DNA of 64,000 bases from positions 92,666 through 156,665 of the forward strand of contig CBDBPB010000002.1 in NCBI GenBank assembly GCA_965208615.1. Reading direction: 5' to 3'. This document shows, one piece after another, positions 20,120 to 61,847 of the stretch. This DNA is from Spirochaetota bacterium (lineage in GTDB: Bacteria > Spirochaetota > UBA6919 > CBDBPB01). Numbering within the stretch: position 1 is the stretch's first letter; each line of letters starts with the position of its first letter. The notes beneath the pieces are model-generated. The model did not search any database. It had not been told where the DNA came from and saw only the letters and a list, made by a program, of their open reading frames with translations. The position numbers and the translations under genes are program-made.

Positions 20120-21209
20120 ATGATCATAAGTAGCAAAGGGAATAGATTAAATATTAGAGCTTTGTTTTCTTTAAACAAGATTTTTATATTTGTCTTTATT
20201 TTTTTTATGTTTGTGTTAACCATGTTATTCTTCTCTAAGGAAGTTTTATCTCAGGATAGACACAGAATAGATTTTTTAAATAAAAATATAGTCAAAGGTA
20301 TTAATATAGGGGATAATTATTATAGTGAAGATAATGAGAATCTTTTGTATGCCTTAGCTCGTTTTGAGTTGAAGAACAAACAGTTTTTAATTGACGATAA
20401 TATTGTAGACTATAAAGGATATTTTAAACAGTTAAAGTTCCGGACTTATACAATTAAAAAGCGTGATACTCTTAGTAGTATTTCAAGGAAGTTTAATATA
20501 AATATTGCTACTTTAGTAAGTTTTAATAACATAGAGGTTGATAAGGCTTTAAGGATTAATAATCAGCTTTTTATTCCGAGTATGGATGGGATTTTATATT
20601 CTGTTAAAAAAGAGGATAGTTTAAGAGGTATTGTAAAGAAGTACTCAAAATATAATGTTAAGTTAGGCGACATAATTTATTTAAATAATATAGTAAATAA
20701 CAAGATAATAGAGAAAGAGCGTCTTTTTATTCCTGGAGCAAAAATAGCTAAGAATCTTCTTATTAAGAAGTTAGAGCATACTTTTGCAATACCGGCAAAA
20801 GGTAGGATAACATCATTAGTGGGGATGAGGCCTAGTATTTTTAAGGGTCCCCAAAAAGGGTTATGAATTTCATCCAGGGGTTGATATAAAGGCCTATTAT
20901 GGTTCACCTGTGAGGGCGGCCAAAAGTGGACGAATAAAGTTAGCAGGTAGAGTTAAGGGATATGGAAAAGTAATTTTCATTAACCATGGTAATGGTTTAC
21001 AGACTAGATATGGTCATTTATCCCGGATATTGGTAAAACGTGGAGAGAGGGTAAGGAAGAGGCAGGTAATTGGGAAGGTAGGCAGTACTGGCAATTCTAC
21101 AGGTCCACATCTTCATTTTGAAGTGAGAAAGTATGGTAAGGTAGTTAATCTTACTCGTAAGTTTAAGGGATTAAGGTTAAAGCGTGGCGGATACTGGAAG
21201 TGGAATTAA
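20120..21209 (+). CDS. LysM-domain M23 metallopeptidase, interrupted by a +1 shift near 20849-20860
   Basis: Two LysM-like segments in ORF 20120-20866. M23 signature continues in the next frame (EFHPGVDI...GSTGNSTGPHLHFEV) in ORF 20910-21209. Shift sits in a C4-A5-G3 run. Confidence 0.65.
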
Positions 21210-21240
21210 TTTTATAATTTGTAGACATATTATAGTTTTT

Positions 21241-21480
21241 ACTCATAGGGGATTAGGCATACTTTTTTTAGATTTACTGTGTGTTATCAAAGGTATTACT
21301 ATGCTATTGTAAAGAGGTTTTGCTAGTTTACTTTTTATAATTGTTGTTTATTTATAGGGGATTAGGCATACTTTTTTTAGATTTACTGTGTGTTATCAAA
21401 GGTATTACTATGCTATTGTAAAGAGGTTTTGCTAGTTTACTTTTTATAATTGTTGTTTACTCATAGGGGATTAGGTATAC
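21241..21480 (+). repeat. Tandem repeat, ~110 bp unit, about 2.2 copies
   Basis: Unit starting ...ataggggattaggcatactttttttagatttactgtg... recurs at 21241, 21351 and partially at 21459. Confidence 0.75.
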
Positions 21481-21859
21481 TTTTTTGAAGTTTTACACAT
21501 AACGTCAATATCTAATATTTAAATAATCCGCTCTACACCTTTATGGAACTGCAAATCCGTTAACACTTAATAAGGGTCTATAATCCTTAGTCTCAGTAAG
21601 GGATTCTTAATAGCTCCCGTAATGATGACTACTTGCATAAAAAGTGATATTTTGTGTTAATTACTAAGGCATTTAAACAGCACTTAAAGAGCATATAGGG
21701 ATAACCTGCTTGACACAGGAAAATAACTTTTCCATAAATATTTTAACTTTCCTGTTCCACAAAGAGATATAAAATACATCTGCCTTTACGTTATATGTCT
21801 TGCTTTTTACCTTGTAGACTTTGTCATAACTATGTCATAAAATGACAACTGAATTATTA
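21481..21859 (+). repeat. Conserved noncoding block, copy A (paired with 58116-58570)
   Basis: Near-identical long stretch in both loci (e.g. ...ccgctctacacctttatggaactgcaaatccgttaacactt...cttgacacaggaaaataacttttcc...); no ORF of 60 aa or more in any frame. Confidence 0.7.
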
Positions 21860-22712
21860 AATAATATCCCTTTAGCCTTAACAAAAAATAAATATACTTA
21901 CTCGTCTGACTTAAAGTCTAAGCGTACAAGTTTATATGCATGTCTATTTTCAACAACCTAAACTTGATGGAGTATCCGTTATACTAAACCATAAAAAAGA
22001 AAAACTATATTCCCTTTAACCTCAACAAAAAATAAATATACCTACCAGCCCTAACTCAAGGTCTGAGCGTACAAGTTTATATGCATGTCTATTGTCAACA
22101 ACCTAAACTTGATAGAGTGCCTGTTATACTAAACCATAAAAAAGAAAAACTATATTCCCCTTAGCCTCAACAAAAAATAAATATACTTACTCGCCTGACT
22201 TAAAGTCTAAGCGTACAAGTTTATATGCATGTCTATTGTCAACAACCTAAACTTGATGAAGTATCCGTTATACTAAACCATAAAAAAGAAAAACTATATT
22301 CCCCTTAGCCTCAACAAAAAATAAATATACTTACTCGCCTGACTTAAAGTCTAAGCGTACAAGTTTATATGCATGTCTATTGTCAACAACCTAAACTTGA
22401 TGAAGTATCCGTTATACTAAACCATAAAAAAGAAAAACTATATTCCCCTTAGCCTTAACAAAAAATAAATATACTTACCCGCCTGACTTAAAGTCTAAGC
22501 GTACAAGTTTATATGCATGTCTATTGCCAACAACCTAAACTTGATGGAGTGCCTGTTATACTAAACCATAAAAAAGAAAAGCTATATTCCCCTTAGCCTT
22601 AACAAAAAATAAATATACTTACTCGCCTGACTCAAGGTCTGAGCGTACAAGTTTATATGCATGTCTATTGTCAACAACCTAAACTTGATGAAGTATCCGT
22701 TATACTAAATTA
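21860..22712 (+). repeat. Tandem array, 144-145 bp unit, about 6 copies
   Basis: Landmark acaaaaaata recurs at 21881, 22025, 22170, 22314, 22458, 22602. Unit contains ...gtctaagcgtacaagtttatatgcatgtctattgtcaacaacctaaacttgatg.... Confidence 0.85.
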
Positions 22713-23070
22713 TCACATATTATGTATAGGTATGGCAATTGGGAATATTAAAACCTCTTATTAAAATATAGCTATCCCCTTTGAAATAGGTTTAAGTACT
22801 TTTTCAGGATGCGGAGAGGATGATATATCCTGTGAGGCTCTGGGTGATTGTGATAAAAATGTTGAAAGTCAGCTAGAGAAAGCAAAAGATGAGGTTACAG
22901 CTGCAAATAAAGAGGTTAACGATGCAAAGAAAGAGGTTAAAAAGGATAAAAAATTAACGCCTGAAGAATTAGAAGAAGCAAGAAAAAAATTAGAAGAAGC
23001 AAGAAAAAAATTAGAAGAAGCAGAAAAAAGATTAAAAGAAGCAAAAAAGATATTAGAAAAGCTAGAAGAT

Positions 23071-25524
23071 ATGTTCCTTAAGGTTTGCAAGGTAACAAGA
23101 ACTACGGATGCTTATATTAACGCTGTTACTTGTAATAAGACTCTCGAGGATAAGTGTAATGGTGAGTGGGATTCACAAGACTGTATAGCGTCTCTTGGTA
23201 CGGCAATTGGGGTATGTAGAGTAGAAAAAGATACAACTACTCGTACTGACGTTGTTACTTGTAATACGATGGTTCAAAGTGAGTGTGATGACAAACTAGG
23301 TGAGTGGGGCTTGCAAAGCTGTACTACAAATCCTGGTACTAAAAGGCTAAAAGCAGTGCCAGAAGCAATATGCAAGGTAATTAGAGATACAGCTTCTCAT
23401 GCTAATGTAGTTACTTGTAATACAATGGTTCAAAGTGAGTGTAGTAAAAGTAAAAGAAAAGGTAATTGGAATCCACAAATCTGTAATCCAGATATTGGTA
23501 CGCCAATAAGTAAAACCTGTAAGATAATAAAAGATTCGGATACTCATACTGATGTTGTTACTTGTCAGACTACTACTAAGGCTGATTGTCCAAGTCCAAG
23601 TGTGTGGGATCCAAAAACCTGTATTCCGTCTATTGGTAATACATGTAAGATAACAGAAAATACGGATAGTCATACCGGCGTTGTTACTTGTAAAAAAACT
23701 ACTAAGGATGATTGTCAAGGTGAGGGGCGTGCGTGGGGTCTACTAGCCTGTACTGAGTCTATTGGTACTCCAATAACTAAGACATGCAAAGTGGAAAAAG
23801 ATACGGATAGTCATACCGGCGTTGTTACTTGTGATAAAACTACTAAAACTCAGTGTGATACTGATAAGGGTACCTGGGACCCACCAAGCTGTGAGCCGTC
23901 TGATGGTACAAAAAGGCAAACACCAGTGGAAGAAAAGGTTTGTAAGATAACAAAAGATACGGATACTCATACAGGCGTTGTTACTTGCGATAAGAATATT
24001 AAGACTGAGTGTGATACTAAACAAGGTGAGTGGGATCCACAAACCTGTACTCCGTTTACTGGTCAGCCCAAGACTAAGATTTGTAAGATAACAACAGAGA
24101 CGTATACTCATACAGGCGTTGTTACTTGTGATACAACTACTAAGGCTCAGTGTGATACTGATAATGGTGATTGGGACTCACAAAGCTGTACTACAAATCC
24201 TGGTACGCCTAAGACTAAGGTTTGCAAGATAACAGAAAATACGCCTACTCGTAGAGGTGTTGTTACTTGTGATACAGCTACTAAAACTCAGTGTGATACT
24301 GATAAGGGTGAGTGGGGCTTAAAAAGTTGTACTCCATCTAAGGGTAAGGCAATTAAGGTTTGTAAGATAACAACAGAGACGCCTAGTCATACAGGCGTTG
24401 TTACTTGTGAGAAAACTACTAAAACTAAGTGTGATACTAAACATGGTGAGTGGGACTCAACAAACTGTACTCCGTCTGCTGGTACGCCCATACCAAATGG
24501 TACGCCCATACCACCTGGGGTTGTTTTTGTAAAAGCTGGAACTCGTACTACTAAAAATGGGAAATCCTGGAATACTGCTTATAGTGATCTTCAAAAAGGT
24601 ATTGAGGAAGCCTCAGAAAAGTTTAAGTCTACTAAAAAACCTGTTAAGGTATATGTAGCCCAAGGGACTTATAAGCCTCAGAGTAGGCCAAATGGTGGTA
24701 CTAGTGATCGTCATAACCATTTTTCATTAAGGAATGGTGTAGAGGTTATTGGGGGTTTTCCTGGTCTAATTACTGGTGAGTCTAATAATCCTAACTACTA
24801 TAAGACTGTCCTAAGCGGTGATATCAGAAGAGTGGGCGATGATAGTGATAACGCCTATCATGTTTTTTATCATCCAGCTACTGCAAAGCTAGATAACACT
24901 GCAAAGTTAGTAGGGGTTATAATTACCAAAGGCAATACTAATACTAGTAGTAATTCCCATAGTTCTGGAGGAGGCATGTTTAATTATGAGAGCTCTCCAA
25001 CGTTAACAAATGTGGAGTTTAATAGTAATACGGCATCATACGGAGGGGGCATGGATAATACTAGTAGTAGCTCTCCAACGTTAACAAATGTGGAGTTTAA
25101 TAGTAATACGGCATCATACGGAGGGGGCATGTTTAATTTTAATAATAGCTCTCCAACGTTAAAAGATGTGACTTTTACTAGTAATACGGCTACTTATAGA
25201 GGAGGGGGCATGTATAATTATAATGAGAGCTCTCCCACTTTAACAAATGTGACTTTTACTAGTAATACGGCTAATAGGTACGGAGGGGGCATGGTTAATT
25301 GGGGTAATAGCAAGCCCACTTTAGATAATACGGTGATTTTTAATAAAAACATTGCTGGTAGTGTTGCTAATAGCCAAATAGGCAAAGGCGGGGCTATTTA
25401 TAATTATTCCTCAAGCATAACAGGCACACCAACCTATGGAACGGGTACTAATGAAAATAAAAAGGTTGTCAAAAATAATAATGGCACATATAAACTTATA
25501 AAGTCAAACCTTGACTCAGACTAA
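23071..25524 (+). CDS. Pmp-like repeat surface protein, paralog 1; lacks signal peptide
   Basis: About ten Cys-rich ~47-51 aa modules (CKITKDTDTHTGVVTCDKTTKTxCDTDKGxWDPxSC), then a choice-of-anchor / beta-helix-like region and five or more GGGM-Y/F-N...VTFTSN units. The frame is open upstream to 22765 but has no ATG/GTG/TTG before 23071. Confidence 0.6.
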   Translation: MFLKVCKVTRTTDAYINAVTCNKTLEDKCNGEWDSQDCIASLGTAIGVCRVEKDTTTRTDVVTCNTMVQSECDDKLGEWGLQSCTTNPGTKRLKAVPEAICKVIRDTASHANVVTCNTMVQSECSKSKRKGNWNPQICNPDIGTPISKTCKIIKDSDTHTDVVTCQTTTKADCPSPSVWDPKTCIPSIGNTCKITENTDSHTGVVTCKKTTKDDCQGEGRAWGLLACTESIGTPITKTCKVEKDTDSHTGVVTCDKTTKTQCDTDKGTWDPPSCEPSDGTKRQTPVEEKVCKITKDTDTHTGVVTCDKNIKTECDTKQGEWDPQTCTPFTGQPKTKICKITTETYTHTGVVTCDTTTKAQCDTDNGDWDSQSCTTNPGTPKTKVCKITENTPTRRGVVTCDTATKTQCDTDKGEWGLKSCTPSKGKAIKVCKITTETPSHTGVVTCEKTTKTKCDTKHGEWDSTNCTPSAGTPIPNGTPIPPGVVFVKAGTRTTKNGKSWNTAYSDLQKGIEEASEKFKSTKKPVKVYVAQGTYKPQSRPNGGTSDRHNHFSLRNGVEVIGGFPGLITGESNNPNYYKTVLSGDIRRVGDDSDNAYHVFYHPATAKLDNTAKLVGVIITKGNTNTSSNSHSSGGGMFNYESSPTLTNVEFNSNTASYGGGMDNTSSSSPTLTNVEFNSNTASYGGGMFNFNNSSPTLKDVTFTSNTATYRGGGMYNYNESSPTLTNVTFTSNTANRYGGGMVNWGNSKPTLDNTVIFNKNIAGSVANSQIGKGGAIYNYSSSITGTPTYGTGTNENKKVVKNNNGTYKLIKSNLDSD

Positions 25525-25554
25525 TAAGTATATTTATTTAGTCCGTTAAAATTA

Positions 25555-25580
25555 AGGGGAGTATAGCTCCTCTTTTTTTT
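25555..25580 (+). terminator. Rho-independent terminator shared by the paralog family
   Basis: aaggggagtatagctcctc followed by T8; same element after all three paralogs. Confidence 0.7.
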
Positions 25581-25762
25581 ATGGTTTTTATAACAAAGTA
25601 GCATAAATAGCAGTTATAGCATAGATAGACTTGACTTATCCTTCTATAAATATTATCCTATGTGATAGAACAAGTTAATTTACTTTTAATTCTATAGTTT
25701 TTAATAAAAAGTTGTTTTTTGTTTAGTTTGAGTTATCTTATAAAAAAACAAGGAATTAAGTT

Positions 25763-27136
25763 ATGACAAAAAAGAATTATTTAAACATTTTAATAATACT
25801 ATTAATTAGTATTTCGTTAGTTAGGGGCAAGTGCGATTCCGATAAGGTAATAAGTCCTCCTTCTGATGGTACAGAAAGGCCAGAACCAGTGGAAGAAAAG
25901 GTTTGTAAGATAACAACAGATACGGATACTCGTAGAGGTGTTGTTACTTGTGAAAAGAATACTACTAATTGTCAAGGTGAGTGGGTCGTAGGATGTCGTC
26001 CATCTAACGGTATACTTATTCCAAAAGCTCAAAAAGATCAAATTTTTGTAAAAGCTTTAAACCAAGATGAAAGGCGCTCTAATGAAGATGGAAAGTCCTG
26101 GACAACTGCCTTTAGTGATCTTCAAAAAGGTATTAAGTATGCTTTTGAGAATAATAAAAAGATGGTATATGTAGCCCAAGGGACTTATAAGCCTACTAGT
26201 TATCCAAATGGTGGTAGTGGTGATGATCGTTATAAGCATTTTTCATTAAGGAATGGTATAGAGGTTATTGGAGGCTTTCCCGGTGAAAAGCTTGATGAGC
26301 CTAATAATCCTGAGCAATATGAGACTATTCTAAGCGGTGATATTGGAACTAAAGATGATAGAGATAACGTCTATCATGTTTTTTATCATCCTGATGGTAC
26401 AAACCTAAATAACTCAGCAAAGCTAGCTGGGGTTACAATTACCCAAGGCTATGCTTATTTTGCGTCTCCTGATGTTAATGAGCCTCGTAAGTTAGGAGGG
26501 GGCATGTATAATTTTAAGAGCTCTCCAACGTTAACAACTGTGACTTTTCGTAATAATACGGCTAGAGATGGAGGGGGCATGTATAATTTTAAGAGCTCTC
26601 CAACGTTAACAGGTGTGGCTTTTACTGAAAATACGGCTATTACCGGAGGGGGCATGCGTAATTATAAGGATAGCTCCCCAACGTTAAAAGATGTGACTTT
26701 TACTAAAAATGAGGCTACTGTTAACGGAGGGGGCATGCATAATTGGGATAATAGCTCTCCAAAGTTAACAGATGTGACTTTTACTAAGAATAAGGCTACT
26801 ATTAACGGAGGGGGCGGCATGTATAATTATTATTATAGCTCCCCAAAGTTAACAGGTGTGACTTTTAATAGTAATACGGCTAGTAGGTACGGAGGGGGCA
26901 TGTTTAATTTTGTTGGTTGCTCTCCAGAGTTCATAAGTAATGTGGTTTTTAATAAAAACATTGTTGGTAGTGTTGGTAGTGACCTAATAAGCTACGGCGG
27001 GGCTATTTATAATAGTAAGACTTCAGCCATAACAGGCACTCCAACCTATGGAACGGGTGATGATGAAAATAAAAAGGTTGTCAAAAATACAGATGGCACA
27101 TATAGTTTTGTAAAGTCAAACAGTTGGCCATGGTAA
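25763..27136 (+). CDS. Pmp-like repeat surface protein, paralog 2 (short form)
   Basis: Own N-terminal hydrophobic leader; one Cys module, then the same beta-helix-like region and about seven GGGM units; same C-terminal segment (ITGTPTYGTG.DENKKVVKN) and 3' flank as paralog 1. Confidence 0.7.
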   Translation: MTKKNYLNILIILLISISLVRGKCDSDKVISPPSDGTERPEPVEEKVCKITTDTDTRRGVVTCEKNTTNCQGEWVVGCRPSNGILIPKAQKDQIFVKALNQDERRSNEDGKSWTTAFSDLQKGIKYAFENNKKMVYVAQGTYKPTSYPNGGSGDDRYKHFSLRNGIEVIGGFPGEKLDEPNNPEQYETILSGDIGTKDDRDNVYHVFYHPDGTNLNNSAKLAGVTITQGYAYFASPDVNEPRKLGGGMYNFKSSPTLTTVTFRNNTARDGGGMYNFKSSPTLTGVAFTENTAITGGGMRNYKDSSPTLKDVTFTKNEATVNGGGMHNWDNSSPKLTDVTFTKNKATINGGGGMYNYYYSSPKLTGVTFNSNTASRYGGGMFNFVGCSPEFISNVVFNKNIVGSVGSDLISYGGAIYNSKTSAITGTPTYGTGDDENKKVVKNTDGTYSFVKSNSWPW

Positions 27137-27165
27137 TAAGTATATTTATTTAGTCCGTTAAAATT

Positions 27166-27192
27166 AAGGGGAGCATAGCTCCTCTTTTTTTT
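27166..27192 (+). terminator. Rho-independent terminator (family 3' flank)
   Basis: ggggagcatagctcctc hairpin followed by T-run. Confidence 0.7.
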
Positions 27193-55547: not shown

Positions 55548-57392
55548 ATGTCTATGAAAAATACTAAATCTACAAACAGGAGATCATTTATATTATCTGT
55601 ATCACCGTTTAACATATTAAGTAGTTCAGAAGTTGAGCTACTTATACCTTCTATAAAGGAATTTACCTTTGAAGAAGATCAAATTATTGCAAAGGAAGGA
55701 GGAGAACCTGAGTTTTTTTATTTAGTTGTTTATGGAGTAGTTAAAAAGCGTTGTGATAGGGATGACATTTTGTATTACTATCCAGGGGATAGTTTTGATG
55801 TTACCTCACTTATTAATAATATAAATGAACATACCTTCGACGCTGACGAAAAGACTTTATGTATTGCTATACCTAAGGATACATTTCTTAAGTTGATGTC
55901 TATCAACAGTGCTTTTGAGAAGTACTATCTTCAGGACTTATCACAAAAGATACACTCTATGATAAACAAGGATGTTAATCAAGAGCTGGCATCATTTATG
56001 GCGGCTAAGGTGGAGGATAGTCTTATACACCCTGCAATTTGTGTTAGTGAGAAGACATCCATTTATGATGCTGTTAAGAAGATGAGTGAAAATCATATAT
56101 CTAGTATATTGGTCGATTGTCCAAACTGTAAGGGGGGATATGGTATAGTTACTGATACTGATCTTCGTAAAAAGGTGATATTAGAGAATCGGTCTTACGA
56201 AGATGATATAGGTAATATTACTACTAATAAGTTAATCAGCATTGATAAAGAGGATTTTCTTTATAATGCATTACTGCTTATGACAGAACACTCAGTAAAG
56301 CGTCTTATTGTTAAGGATGACAATAAGATAGTGGGTACTTTGGAGCAGATAGATGTACTTAGTACAATATCTCATAGATCTAGATTATTCCACGTTCGTA
56401 TTAACAGGGCTACTAGTGTTGAGGAGTTAAAGACAGCTAGTAAGGAGTCTATTTATATGATTAAGGCTTTGCTTAGTCAGGGAGTTAAGGTAATTAATAT
56501 AACGAAGCTCTTGTCTCAGTTGTACTCTCAGTTATTTAGGAAGCTTTTTGAGATATTGGCACCTAAGGATTTGATTGATAATTCATGTTTAGTAGTTTTG
56601 GGTAGTGAGGGTAGGGGGGAGCAGATTCTCAAAACTGATCAGGATAACGCTATTATACTAAGAGACGGATATAGAAATGATAATTTTAGGGAGATAATGA
56701 ATGCTTTTACTAATGCTTTGCTGGAGTGTGGTTATCCAAGGTGCAAGGGTAATATTATGGTATCCAATCCATATTGGGCAAAGTCTCTTAGGGAGTATGA
56801 GACTGAGATTAAGAACTGGATGGTAAATCTAAAGAATGAGGATATAATTAATATAGCGGCTTTATACGATGGTATTGCTGTAGCGGGGGACAAATTACTT
56901 TTGGATGAGTTAAAGGAGAGGTTTTTGCTATTGAGGAAGGATAAGAATTTATTATCCCAGTTTGCTTATCCAACAGTATATATAGCTACACCTCTTTCAT
57001 TTTTCAACAAGTTTATTTTGGATAAGGGTCACAATGATATGCTTGATATTAAGAAGGGTGGGATATTTCCGATAGTTCATGGTATTAGGAGTTTTGCGTT
57101 GGAGGCGAATCTTAGTGAGACTAATACTTTTGAGCGTATTGAGAAGATTAGTGAAATGGGGATTATAAAGAAAGACATAGCAGATGAGCTTATAGAGGCA
57201 TTAAACTTTTTATTAACTATTAGGTTAAGGGTTAGGCTGGATAAGACGGATAAGGGAGAAAAGCTTGATAATTATATTGATCCTAGGGTATTATCCAAGT
57301 TGGAGCAGGATGTATTAAGAGATATTTTAAAGATAGTCAAGCGTTTTAAGGAGTTAGTTAGTTATCATTTTAGGTTAGACAGTCTTGGATGA
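55548..57392 (+). CDS. cNMP-binding / tandem CBS / DUF294 nucleotidyltransferase-domain signalling protein
   Basis: cNMP-binding-like N-terminus, CBS pair, nucleotidyltransferase signature LVVLGSEGRGEQILKTDQDNAIIL. Confidence 0.7.
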   Translation: MSMKNTKSTNRRSFILSVSPFNILSSSEVELLIPSIKEFTFEEDQIIAKEGGEPEFFYLVVYGVVKKRCDRDDILYYYPGDSFDVTSLINNINEHTFDADEKTLCIAIPKDTFLKLMSINSAFEKYYLQDLSQKIHSMINKDVNQELASFMAAKVEDSLIHPAICVSEKTSIYDAVKKMSENHISSILVDCPNCKGGYGIVTDTDLRKKVILENRSYEDDIGNITTNKLISIDKEDFLYNALLLMTEHSVKRLIVKDDNKIVGTLEQIDVLSTISHRSRLFHVRINRATSVEELKTASKESIYMIKALLSQGVKVINITKLLSQLYSQLFRKLFEILAPKDLIDNSCLVVLGSEGRGEQILKTDQDNAIILRDGYRNDNFREIMNAFTNALLECGYPRCKGNIMVSNPYWAKSLREYETEIKNWMVNLKNEDIINIAALYDGIAVAGDKLLLDELKERFLLLRKDKNLLSQFAYPTVYIATPLSFFNKFILDKGHNDMLDIKKGGIFPIVHGIRSFALEANLSETNTFERIEKISEMGIIKKDIADELIEALNFLLTIRLRVRLDKTDKGEKLDNYIDPRVLSKLEQDVLRDILKIVKRFKELVSYHFRLDSLG

Positions 57393-58111
57393 CAGGGGTT
57401 AGTAAAAAGGTTATATCTTTGCATTGTATGTTATATATATATAGATATCGCATGGGTTCAATTATCTTTGATGTTGGAGCAGGATGTATTAAGAGATATT
57501 TTAAAGATAGTCAAGCGTTTTAAGGAGTTAGTTAGTTATCATTTTAGGGTTAGACAGTCTTGGGATGACAGGGGTTAGTAAAAAGGTTATATCTTTGCAT
57601 TGTATGTTATATATATATAGGTATTGCATGGGTTCAATTATCTTTGATGTTGGAGCAGGATGTATTAAGAGATATTTTAAAGATAGTCAAGCGTTTTAAG
57701 GAGTTAGTTAGTTATCATTTTAGGGTTAGACAGTCTTGGATGACAGGGGTTAGTAAAAAGGTTATATCTTTGCATTGTATGTTATATATATATAGGTATC
57801 GCATGGGTTCAATTATCTTTGATGTTGGAGCAGGATGTATTAAGAGATATTTTAAAGATAGTCAAGCGTTTTAAGGAGTTAGTTAGTTATCATTTTAGGT
57901 TAGACAGTCTTGGGATGACAGGGGTTAGTAAAAAGGTTATATCTTTGCATTGTATGTTATATATATATAGGTATCGCATGGGTTCAATTATCTTTGATGT
58001 TGGAGCAGGATGTATTAAGAGATATTTTAAAGATAGTCAAGCGTTTTAAGGAGTTAGTTAGTTATCATTTTAGGGTTAGACAGTCTTGGATGACAGGGGT
58101 TAGTAAAAAGG
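57299..58111 (+). repeat. Tandem array, ~175 bp unit, about 4.6 copies, reiterating the 3' end of the DUF294 gene
   Basis: Landmark tggagcaggatgtattaaga recurs at 57301, 57475, 57651, 57826, 58001. Copies differ mainly in G-run length. Confidence 0.85.
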
Positions 58112-58115
58112 TTCT

Positions 58116-58570
58116 ATCAGTCATTTTATTAGTGAAGATTTCAGTAGTTTACTTTTTATAGTTGTTATTTATCATAGAGGATTAGGCATACTTTTTTGAA
58201 GTTTTACACATAACGTCAACATGTAATATTTAAATAATCCGCTCTACGCCTTTATGGGACTGCAAATCCGTTAACACTTAATAAAGGTCTATAATTCTTA
58301 GTTCCAGTAAGGGATTCTTAATAGCTCCCGTAATGATGACTACTTGCATAAAAAGTGATATTTTGTGTTAATTACTAAGGCATTTAAACAGCACTTAAAG
58401 AGCATATAGGGGTAACCTGCTTGACACAGGAAAATAACTTTTCCATGAATATCTTAACTTTCCTGTTCCACAAAGAGATATAAAATACATCTGCCTTTAC
58501 GTTATATGTCTTCATTTTGCCTTGTATCCCTCGTCATTACTACGTCATAAAATGATAACTAAATTATCAT
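58116..58570 (+). repeat. Conserved noncoding block, copy B (paired with 21440-21859)
   Basis: Near-identical to copy A over its length, with scattered substitutions. Confidence 0.7.
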
Positions 58571-58860
58571 AAAAAAGAAGAGCCGTCCTCCCCTTAATTT
58601 TAACAAAAAAATAAACTATACTTACTAACTTTACTCAAAGTCTAAGCGTACAAGTTTATATGCATGTCTATTTTCAACAACCTAAACTTGATGGAGTGCC
58701 TGTTATACTAAACCATAAAAAAGAAAAGCTATATTCCCCTTAGCCTTAACAAAAAATAAATATACCTACCAGCCCTAACTCAAGGTCTGAGCGTACAAGT
58801 TTATATGCATGTCTATTGTCAACAACCTAAACTTGATGAAGTATCCGTTATACTAAATTA
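58571..58860 (+). repeat. Tandem array, 144-146 bp unit, about 2 copies
   Basis: Same unit family as 21860-22712. Confidence 0.75.
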
Positions 58861-59076
58861 TTACATATTATGTATAGGTATGCCAATTGGGAATATTAAA
58901 ACCTCTTATTAAAATATAGCTATCCCCTTTGAAATAGGTTTAAGTACTTTTTTTAGTTGTATTTTTCTTTGAGATTGATTACCTTATAGTAGATTTATTT
59001 TTAAATGATATAGCTTTATATGCGTTGGCCTATTAGAGCTTAACGTTTTAAGCTAAAAAAAACAATAGGGGGAATC

Positions 59077-61743
59077 ATGAAGAAAGTATTCTTTATTTTA
59101 CTAACTTTAGCTTTATTAACAGGATGCGGAGAGGATGATATATCCTGTGAGGCTCTGGGTGATTGTGATAAAAATGTTGAAAGTCAGCTAGACAAAGCAG
59201 ATAAAGATGTTGCAGCTGCAGAGGAAGAGCTAAATAAATTAGAAGTAGATGGGATAAATGATGGAAATAAAGAAGAGGTAGTAGGAAAAGTAGAAGATAT
59301 AGCAACAGGAGTACAGAAAGCAGTAGATAGCTTAAAAGATGTAGTCGAAGAAGAAAAACTAAAAAATATAAAAAATAAACTTATAACAATATTAAATAGT
59401 TTAACAGACGCAGACACAAAAAAAGTAAGAGAAATAGTAAATGTGCTAAAAACAGCAGTAAAAGGCCTAAAAACAGCAGTAGAAGCTTTAAAAGGCTTAG
59501 TAGACGAGGGAAAAGGAAAAAAGACCTGTAAGGTAACAAGTAATACGGATACTCATAGAGGCGTTGTTACTTGTGATAAAACTACTAAAACTAAGTGTGA
59601 TACTGATAAGGGTACCTGGGACCCACCAAGCTGTGAGCCGTCTGCTGGTACAGAAAGGCAAACACCAGTGGAAGAAAAGGTTTGTAAGGTAACAAAAGAT
59701 ACGGATACTCATACAGGCGTTGTTACTTGTGATAAAACTACTAAAACTAAGTGTGATACTGATAAGGGTACCTGGGACCCACCAAGCTGTGAGCCGTCTG
59801 CTGGTAAGGCAATTAAGGTTTGTAAGGTAACAAAAGATACGGATACTCATGCTAACGTTATTACTTGTGATACAATGGTTCAAAGTGAGTGTAGTAAAAG
59901 AGATGGTGAGTGGGGAGTGCAATGTACTAAATCTAATGGTATGCCTAAGATTAGGCTTTGTAAGGTAAAAAAAGATACGGATGATTATATCGGCGTTATT
60001 ACTTGTGATACAACTACTAAGGCTAATTGTCAAGGTGAGTGGGATTCACAAGACTGTAGGCCATCTGATGGTACTCCAATTAAGATATGTAAAGTAAAAA
60101 AAGATACGACTACTCATATCGGCATTGTTACTTGTAAGAAGACTACTAAAACTAAGTGTAATACTGATAAGGGTACCTGGGGGTCCACCAAGCTGTAATC
60201 AAAATCCTGGAGCTCTCATACCAGCTGGGGTTGTTTTTGTAAAAGCTGGAACTCGTACTACTAAAAACGGTAAAACCTGGAAAAACTGCTTATAGTGACC
60301 TACAAAAGGCTATTGATGAAGCTAAGAAAGCTAATAAACCTAAGGTATATGTAGCCCAAGGGACTTACAAGCCTACTGGTCATCCAAATGGTGGTAATGG
60401 TGGACGTGAAAAGCATTTTTCATTAAGGAATGGTGTAGAGGTTATTGGTGGTTATAAAGGTGAAAAGGTTGATGAGTCTAATAATCCTAACTACTATAAG
60501 ACTATCCTAAGCGGTGATAATAACGCCTATCATGTTTTTTATCATCCCGCTATTGCAAACTTAGATAAAACAGCAAAGTTAGTGGAGGTTACTATTACCA
60601 AAGGCAATGCTAATGGTAGTGATCCTCATGAATACGGAGGGGGCATGTATAATTATAATAGCCATCCCACTTTAACAACTGTGATTTTTGAGAGTAATAA
60701 GGCCGGATGGGGAGGGGGCATGTATAATGAGTATAGCTCTCCAGAGTTAAGAAATGTGACTTTTGAGAGTAATAAGGCCGGATGGGGAGGGGGCATGTAT
60801 AATAAGGATAATAGCAAGCCAAAGTTAACAAATGTGACTTTTACTTAGTAATGAGGCCTCATACGGAGGGGGCATGTTTAATATTAATAGTTCTCCAGAG
60901 TTAAAAGATGTGACTTTTGATAGCAATGAGGCTAAGCAATACGGAGGGGGCATGTATAATAAGGATAATAGCAAGCCAAAGTTAACAAATGTGACTTTTA
61001 CTAGTAATGAGGCCTCATACGGAGGGGGCATGTTTAATATTAATAGTTCTCCAGAGTTAAAAGATGTGACTTTTGATAGCAATGAGGCTAAGCAATACGG
61101 AGGGGGCATGGGTAATGAGAAGAGCTCTCCCACTTTAAAAGATGTGGAGTTTACTAGTAATACGGCCGACTTAGGAGGGGGCATGTATAATAATAATAGC
61201 TCTCCCAAGTTAACAAATGTGACTTTTACTAGTAATACGGCTAATAGGTACGGAGGGGGCATGTTTAATAGTGATAGCTATCCAACGTTAAGAAATGTGA
61301 CTTTTACTAGTAATGAGGCCTCATACGGAGGGGGCATGACTAATTATAAAACCTTTCCCACTTTAAAAGATGTGACTTTTACTAGTAATACGGCTACTAA
61401 AGGAGGGGGCATGTATAATTATAAAACCTTTCCCACTTTAAAAGATGTGACTTTTAATAGCAATGAGGCTAAGCAATACGGAGGGGGCATGTATAATAGT
61501 GATAATAGCAAGCCCACTTTAGATAATACGGTGATTTTTAATAAAAACATTGCTGGTAGCATTGAAGATAAAAAAGAAGGAAAAGGCGGGGCTATTTATA
61601 ATGTTGTTGGTAAAGATAATATTCCTGACTCAAGCATAACAGGCACACCAACCTATGGAACGGGTACTAATGAAAATAAAAAGGTTGTCAAAGTGGGTAA
61701 TACATATAAACTTGTACAGTCAAACCTTGAGTCAGGCCAGTAA
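59077..61743 (+). CDS. Pmp-like repeat surface lipoprotein, paralog 3, interrupted by three +1 shifts (about 60183, 60275, 60848)
   Basis: RBS plus lipoprotein signal peptide MKKVFFILLTLALLTGC. Six Cys modules, then the beta-helix-like region and about twelve GGGM units across three consecutive frames (ORFs 59077-60198, 60582-60848, 60874-61743). Confidence 0.65.
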
Positions 61744-61771
61744 GTATATTTATTTAGTCCGTTAAAATTAA

Positions 61772-61797
61772 GGGGAGCATAGCTCCTCTTTTTTTTA
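61772..61797 (+). terminator. Rho-independent terminator (family 3' flank)
   Basis: ggggagcatagctcctc followed by T8. Confidence 0.7.
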
Positions 61798-61847
61798 TTG
61801 GTTTTAATAACATTGAAATATTTATAGATGTAGGTTATATTTACTTA

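Follow-up and report, generated by a model that had tools for sequence, protein, structure and literature searches.

The window analysed here, that is, the whole 64,000-nucleotide stretch of the 168,053-bp contig CBDBPB010000002.1 from a Spirochaetota bacterium (assembly GCA_965208615.1), is of low GC content (~33%) and carries a 14-subunit nuo operon as well as functions such as arsenite oxidase and the synthesis of cobalamin and thiamine. Three PMP-repeat lipoprotein genes are also found in it: gene 1 (22805-25524, plus strand), gene 2 (25763-27136, with its tail on the plus strand) and gene 3 (59077-61743, plus strand). Genes 1 and 3 combine Cys-rich modules with a beta-helix of Chlamydia-PMP-type repeats. 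The lipoprotein family is large and modular, and paralogues encoded on other large contigs have a common C-terminal tail, ..TGTPTYGTGxDENKKV...NTYKLVxSNLESGQ. The Cys-rich coding modules of the window (23071-24485 and 59500-60200) are 138-156 bp long, contain four Cys each, are repeated ~6-10 times and have no Pfam match. Within the tails of genes 1 and 3, which are otherwise ~80% identical, a stretch of 64 nt is perfectly identical (25410-25473 versus 61629-61692); as judged by this comparison of the two tails, the stretch suggests recent gene conversion between the paralogues, and conversion between genes 1 and 3 is plausible.

Upstream of gene 1 (locus 1) and gene 3 (locus 3) lie two tandem arrays of a 144-145 bp unit. 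Array 1 (21867-22709) consists of the units A1 (21867-22011), A2 (22012-22155), A3 (22156-22299), A4 (22300-22443), A5 (22444-22587) and A6 (22588-22709), and array 3 (58568-58857) of a partial junction (58568-58590) and the units B1 (58591-58735) and B2 (58736-58857). Both arrays are assigned to the minus strand, array 1 on the basis of Tandem Repeats Finder (TRF), unit alignment, homology to gene tails and in-frame translation, and array 3 on the basis of TRF, a terminator-like site and the predicted fold. TRF reports a period of 144 and 5.8 copies for array 1 (93% matches, 0 indels, score 1460) and a period of 145 and 2.0 copies for array 3 (84% matches), and an independent repeat search returned spacings of 145, 144, 144, 144 and 144 in array 1. 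The tandem spacing of 144-145 bp described in a first-pass annotation of this DNA is thus borne out by both methods, as is, in the assembly, its count of about six versus two units (5.8 versus 2.0 by TRF); the unit variants it listed, gatggagtatccg, gatagagtgcctg and gatgaagtatccg, are all present in the sequence. The longest open reading frame (ORF) that overlaps a unit is 39 aa, and a tRNA search found none. A CRISPR array is ruled out, as each unit follows directly on the one before, with no spacer in between and at a period of exactly one unit.

Alignment of the eight units (A1-A6, B1 and B2) gives a mean column identity of 91%. A3 and A4 are identical in sequence, and most units differ from one another by 4-21 substitutions. 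Divergence is greatest for B1, with 17-21 differences from the other units; in the region that we assign below to a terminator, B1 is also the unit closest to the lipoprotein genes. B2 is a mosaic, its 5' half equal to A2 and its 3' half to A6. BLAST aligns locus 3 colinearly with both the left end of locus 1 (shared block, A1 and A2) and its right end (A5, A6 and the flank). The arrays have the features of an intergenic VNTR or minisatellite: head-to-tail units of high identity in non-coding DNA, with signs of recent duplication or homogenisation. Within the 64-kb window, long-period intergenic arrays are confined to lipoprotein loci 1 and 3, which hints at a tie to this gene family.

The arrays are embedded in a larger cassette common to the two loci. 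To the left lies a shared block of ~430 nt (21432-21866 at locus 1, 58143-58567 at locus 3, delimited by repeat search and alignment), 96% identical between the loci and free of any ORF of at least 40 aa and of Rfam matches. Its core of ~105 nt (21600-21705, corresponding to 58311-58416) is 100% identical between the loci; it, too, holds no ORF and no Rfam match. To the right, between array and coding sequence, a flank of 95 nt (22710-22804 at locus 1, 58858-58952 at locus 3), found by the repeat search and carrying a promoter-like site, is 98% identical. Neither the flank nor the shared block has detectable homology to gene bodies or downstream regions (z < 1). The similarity continues into the mature coding sequence, of which the initial ~110 nt (22805-22914 versus 59120-59229) are 91% identical by BLAST; past this point, genes 1 and 3 are only about 65-82% (about 75%) identical. 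That the cassette (96-98%) is better conserved than the genes (about 75%) could reflect either selection on the cassette or recent conversion.

The two loci differ in what separates the flank from the mature coding sequence. At locus 3, a segment found only there (58953-59119, plus strand) supplies a strong Shine-Dalgarno sequence (RBS GGGGGA), the ATG at 59077 and a lipoprotein signal peptide, MKKVFFILLTLALLTG, cleaved before the Cys. At locus 1, the corresponding ~166 nt are missing between 22804 and 22805, and the sequence resumes precisely at the lipobox Cys codon (CAGGATGC). Gene 1 is therefore a 5'-truncated copy: although its frame is open from about 22765, a start codon (M) first occurs at 23071, and a signal peptide is encoded in none of the frames. 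The copy may be silent or dead. The initial description of the array as lying between the shared block and a gene start thus holds for locus 3, where a translatable gene (ATG 59077) follows the array, but not for locus 1, where there is no gene start.

To trace the unit, we compared each of the eight copies with the 64-kb window on both strands. Outside the arrays, the only matches are the tails of genes 3, 1 and 2, and every match is inverted (E 1e-18 to 5e-4). From end to end, the minus strand of each unit shares 70-77% identity with the 3' tails of the PMP-repeat lipoprotein genes; local alignments of unit and tail cover 98-150 nt at 66-77% identity, and the best of them span the whole unit. 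The homologous tails, all on the plus strand, are those of gene 1 (25463-25595, stop codon 25522-25524), gene 2 (27075-27190) and gene 3 (61682-61814, ending in ...NTYKLVQSNLESGQ and the stop codon at 61741-61743). BLAST of locus 1 against locus 3 pairs 22570-22662 with 61794-61700 (83%, E 2e-22), 25463-25595 with 58828-58701 (74%) and 27075-27190 with 58683-58571 (72%), and an inverted-repeat search independently recovered the same array/tail pairs, among them arms at 58551-58683 and 61682-61814 that join the region of array 3 to the tail of gene 3. The gene 3 tail is the nearest relative of the array units, with identities of up to 86% over 56 nt and of 84% over 77 nt (E 1e-18).

The homology includes the end of the reading frame and what follows it. 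Read on the minus strand, a unit contains ~30 codons, a stop codon and the remnant of an intrinsic terminator, and the stop codon takes the same position in the unit (after AYKLVRSDLESGE) and in the gene (after TYKLVQSNLESGQ). Translated in the gene frame, the minus strand of A6 reads ..VVDNRHAYKLVRSDLESGE before the stop, and gene 3 reads ..VVKVGNTYKLVQSNLESGQ before its own; the units carry in-frame stops upstream of the shared stop codon. The terminator has decayed as well. Those of genes 1, 2 and 3 fold with -17.2, -18.6 and -19.8 kcal/mol, respectively (z -3.8 to -5.3), and are followed by U8, while their counterparts in the five units folded, B1 excepted, reach -4 to -8 kcal/mol with z about 0. 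The best-kept remnant (-10.7 kcal/mol, 58575-58595) is that of B1, which on the minus strand is the last copy. The last ~17 nt of the locus 3 shared block (58551-58567) still align with sequence downstream of the gene terminators. At the junction between units, sequence from past the terminator (..ATGGTTT..TATAAC) is joined to ..GGrTAC (GGATAC) in the coding tail; at the corresponding point the genes read ..GGAAC/GGGTAC, and the junction would thus carry a microhomology of 3 nt (AAC).

The homology to gene tails, the shared position of the stop codon, the in-frame stops and the decayed terminator lead us to view the unit as a pseudogenised gene tail with its terminator: the homology extends through the stop codon into downstream sequence, and the integrity of both reading frame and terminator is lost. 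We consider it reasonably probable that the two arrays are a non-coding minisatellite, the unit of which is the pseudogenised, reversed 3' end of a PMP-lipoprotein gene, placed upstream of two other genes of that family, and would have no function of its own today. The first-pass annotation had remarked that the unit length is close to that of the coding Cys module and had seen no similarity between the two. Our comparison of each unit with the whole window on both strands likewise shows no sequence relation to the Cys modules, and the similar lengths are a coincidence; what that annotation missed is the reverse-complement homology to the gene tail and its terminator. What counts against this reading is that no remnant of a parent gene body is detectable that would account for the arrival of an inverted tail upstream of a family gene.

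A second array of the same kind lies close by. The 175-bp array (57299-58118, plus strand; 4.7 copies, 98% identical, detected by TRF and the repeat search) has a unit that consists of the last 94 nt of a cNMP-binding/CBS/DUF294 gene (55548-57392) and 81 nt of downstream sequence, and each copy retains the tail peptide LEQDVLRDILKIVKRFKELVSYHFR. It is a gene-tail duplication like the 144-bp array, but in direct orientation. The 109-bp array (21238-21486; 2.3 copies, 96% identical) adds a third long-period duplication to these loci, independent of the other two. It starts 29 nt past an M23 peptidase gene and runs across the left boundary of the shared block, of which it covers the first ~55 nt.

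These observations suggest a history in four steps, of which both the order of events and the mechanism of duplication are our inference. A gene tail of ~148 nt would first have been duplicated head to tail, with the 3-nt microhomology (AAC) at the junction, and the array would then have been amplified via slippage or unequal crossing-over. The upstream cassette, from the shared block through array and flank to about the 37th mature codon, would next have come to occupy two loci by duplication or gene conversion, after which the two arrays would have changed length independently, to about six and two units. Since the units are mosaic and A3 equals A4, slippage or unequal crossing-over is most likely behind the difference in copy number; mosaic units together with colinear array ends form the pattern that would be expected of either process acting on arrays of common ancestry. 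The earlier proposal that the array marks unequal recombination is supported by the same three features, that is, the mosaic B2, the identity of A3 and A4 and the colinear array ends. The mechanism, tandem duplication followed by unequal recombination, is ordinary; the origin, traceable to a gene tail, is unusual.

The other role first suggested for the array was regulatory, in that its length could tune expression. The number of units would then set the spacing or DNA geometry between the promoter and an upstream element in the shared block, or add promoters or operators, and so tune expression of the lipoprotein. The array does lie upstream of a surface-protein gene within a cassette that is highly conserved between the loci, some units contain TGnTATACT, a motif resembling an extended -10 element (others read CGTTATACT), and an invariant 8-bp inverted repeat, CAAGTTTA/TAAACTTG, recurs in each unit. 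However, a scan with a sigma-70-type consensus, which may not be the promoter type of this host, found 8 promoter-like sites versus 9.2 +/- 3.4 expected, with 0 on the plus strand within units. The best conserved plus-strand candidate, and the only conserved one, lies downstream of the array in the 95-nt flank (TTGGGA-17-TAAAAT, 22739-22767, and 58887-58915 at locus 3). Furthermore, it is the six-unit array that precedes gene 1, the copy without RBS, ATG and signal peptide, and descent from a gene tail already accounts for the sequence of the unit. With no excess of promoters, with units that are antisense tail remnants and with a start-less gene downstream of the longer array, we consider tuning by array length unlikely. 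The array is best read as a fossil of a gene tail that expands and contracts rather than as an expression dial.

The 8-bp inverted repeat is an observation in its own right: its arms, CAAGTTTA and TAAACTTG, lie 24 nt apart in every unit (e.g. 21932-21975) and are missing from the parent gene tails. As judged from the units, the repeat may be due to chance or may be a candidate binding site.

A second functional possibility is that the arrays serve as a substrate for recombination, in which the inverted tails and the 5' cassette would mediate gene inversion or gene conversion; locus 3 would be the expressed site, and the start-less locus 1 its silent partner. Inverted repeats bracket both genes: array units on one side match the tail of the gene itself on the other, in inverted orientation, over 30-133 nt and with 71-86% identity. 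Such repeats constitute long, diverged homology rather than short recombinase sites. The exact truncation of gene 1 at the lipobox Cys, the perfect 64-nt stretch in the otherwise ~80% identical tails and the size and modularity of the family fit this possibility too. Yet array and tail are merely 70-86% identical, and their longest exact match, 15-17 nt, counts against recombination as it falls below the ~25 nt of identity that efficient RecA recombination needs. A scan of window proteins, covering a subset of the ORFs, recognised no recombinase domain; loci 1 and 3 have the same orientation; and both the terminators and the reading frame of the units are decaying. Taken together, we regard a present-day role as a recombination substrate as quite improbable.

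A specific form of this proposal is modelled on silent-cassette systems, in which one expression site is accompanied by promoter-less or start-less copies with common 5' and 3' homology. The two loci visible here comprise the start-less gene 1, the shared 5' cassette and the conserved tails with their 64-nt identity. In Borrelia hermsii, the vmp lipoproteins are encoded by a system of silent cassettes and an expression site with upstream and downstream homology sequences. Like vmp, the loci described here involve a family of lipoproteins of which one copy lacks a start, with a block of homology common to the 5' ends and with conserved 3' ends. Unlike in vmp, the tail copies are inverted and decayed, and no switching, telomeric expression site or conversion product is seen; the likeness is one of resemblance only. 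It is highly improbable, in our estimation, that inverted tail array, own tail and 5' cassette would together make up a recombination-based variation system with locus 3 as the expressed gene and locus 1 as the silent donor. Were it so, the number of tail units would set the frequency of inversion or conversion, and the system would serve a lineage-specific family of surface lipoproteins with Cys modules and PMP repeats.

The arrays could also be real but their difference in length, six versus two units, a product of collapse or expansion during assembly. The identity of A3 and A4 would fit such an error, the source is a single contig of the metagenome type, and a short-read Logan contig that apparently stems from the same genome ends at 21274, within the 109-bp repeat. 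Run ERR12408773 contains two short-read contigs that agree with the window to 100% and 99.99%. The sole difference of a short-read contig from the window is CCCC versus CCC at 20852; this +1 insertion, which disrupts the M23 peptidase gene of the window, has no counterpart in the short-read contig. The frame of gene 3 is likewise broken three times (~60181, ~60284 and ~60846), in each case by a +1 insertion at a run of a single base, and nuoA (~27958) and nuoB (~28110) are also split. These frameshifts are probably long-read consensus errors and not pseudogenes. As +1 homopolymer errors are typical of long-read consensus, and such reads would readily span the 843 bp of array 1, the copy numbers of 5.8 and 2.0 in the assembly appear plausible. 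In addition, most units are separable by 4-21 substitutions, and both ends of the array align cleanly to unique flanks. An assembly artefact is, in our view, very unlikely.

Finally, that the units encode a structured small RNA or a 27-aa plus-strand mini-ORF (MHVYCQQPKLD.V.VILNHKKEKLYSP) is improbable in the extreme: the mini-ORF does recur in every unit, and of the base pairs in a 4-bp hairpin one has undergone a compensated substitution, but the mini-ORF lacks a Shine-Dalgarno sequence and differs at several residues between copies, the compensated pair coincides with the SDLES and LDFKS lineages of the tail remnant, Rfam gives 0 matches at the gathering score or at E = 1, fold z-scores on both strands (-0.66 to +2.0) are none better than those of shuffled sequences, and the consensus structure is worth merely -8.3 kcal/mol.

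The reading of the arrays as a gene-tail minisatellite invites comparison with known repeats. Phase-variable promoter repeats have units of 1-10 bp in or near the promoters of surface-protein genes and act by altering spacing. The arrays described here are likewise variable-number repeats upstream of a surface-protein gene; unlike promoter repeats, however, they have a 144-bp unit, lie upstream of the sole conserved promoter-like site and are derived from coding sequence. Many repeats of Ehrlichia ruminantium duplicate the ends of genes, as do the 175-bp and 144-bp arrays. That species has a reduced, obligate intracellular genome with repeats genome-wide, whereas here the genome is metabolically rich and the arrays cluster at two lipoprotein loci. 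Intergenic tandem repeats of E. ruminantium expand and contract, and in this the arrays resemble them (PMC10710844). Similar in period are VNTR-141 and VNTR-105 of Wolbachia, described as intergenic, with periods of 105-141 bp and copy numbers of 0.8 to 7.3, and as proposed to originate by slipped-strand mispairing (PMC3287509). The arrays share with them the head-to-tail arrangement of highly similar, non-coding units and hairpin remnants within the periods; copies in Wolbachia vary between strains at one locus, whereas here they vary between paralogous loci, the comparison being of two such loci in one genome (PMC3287509). Furthermore, the portion of the Wolbachia report considered does not describe its units as gene-derived, whereas the unit here is a reversed gene tail with its terminator (PMC3287509).

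Read as a duplicated gene tail, the array shows a route by which a long-period bacterial minisatellite can originate, namely by tandem duplication of the last codons, the stop and the terminator of a gene. The parent sequence of the 144-bp unit is still present in the same window and can be compared directly, and ~450 bp upstream of array 3 there is a second, younger array, which derives from the tail of an unrelated gene; together, they offer a worked example against which to model how the ends of genes are duplicated in tandem. Annotators are warned by this case not to take such arrays for promoters or RNA genes, and it flags a modular, recombining family of surface lipoproteins in this organism.

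The repeat and the proteins of the window have few relatives. The repeat core gave 0 matches to an exact 27-mer in the genome collection and 0 to a 24-mer in the metagenome collection; a mobile-element origin of the array was rejected upon finding no match in plasmid or phage collections. At 90% identity, each of the eight window proteins tested forms a singleton cluster, and NuoL has no relative above ~50% identity in GTDB species genomes, its matches being of mixed phyla. The lipoprotein genes, the DUF294 gene and the paralogues P0026, P0038 and P0130 have no entry in the gene-position index. For the lipoprotein family, JGI metagenomes contain only relatives of 25-35% identity, and for its N-terminal and Cys-module part P0130 is the sole other homologue among 5.8 billion protein clusters. 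The N-terminus shared with P0130 reads GCGEDDISCEALG. In gene 3, the N-terminal module (59077-59500) has the form MKK.FFILLTL.LL.GC GEDDISCEALG.CDKNVES and is followed by a coiled coil and a Cys module; the same N-terminal module heads P0130, a lipoprotein encoded on a 605-kb contig that carries the metzincin motif HEIGHLLGLRH.
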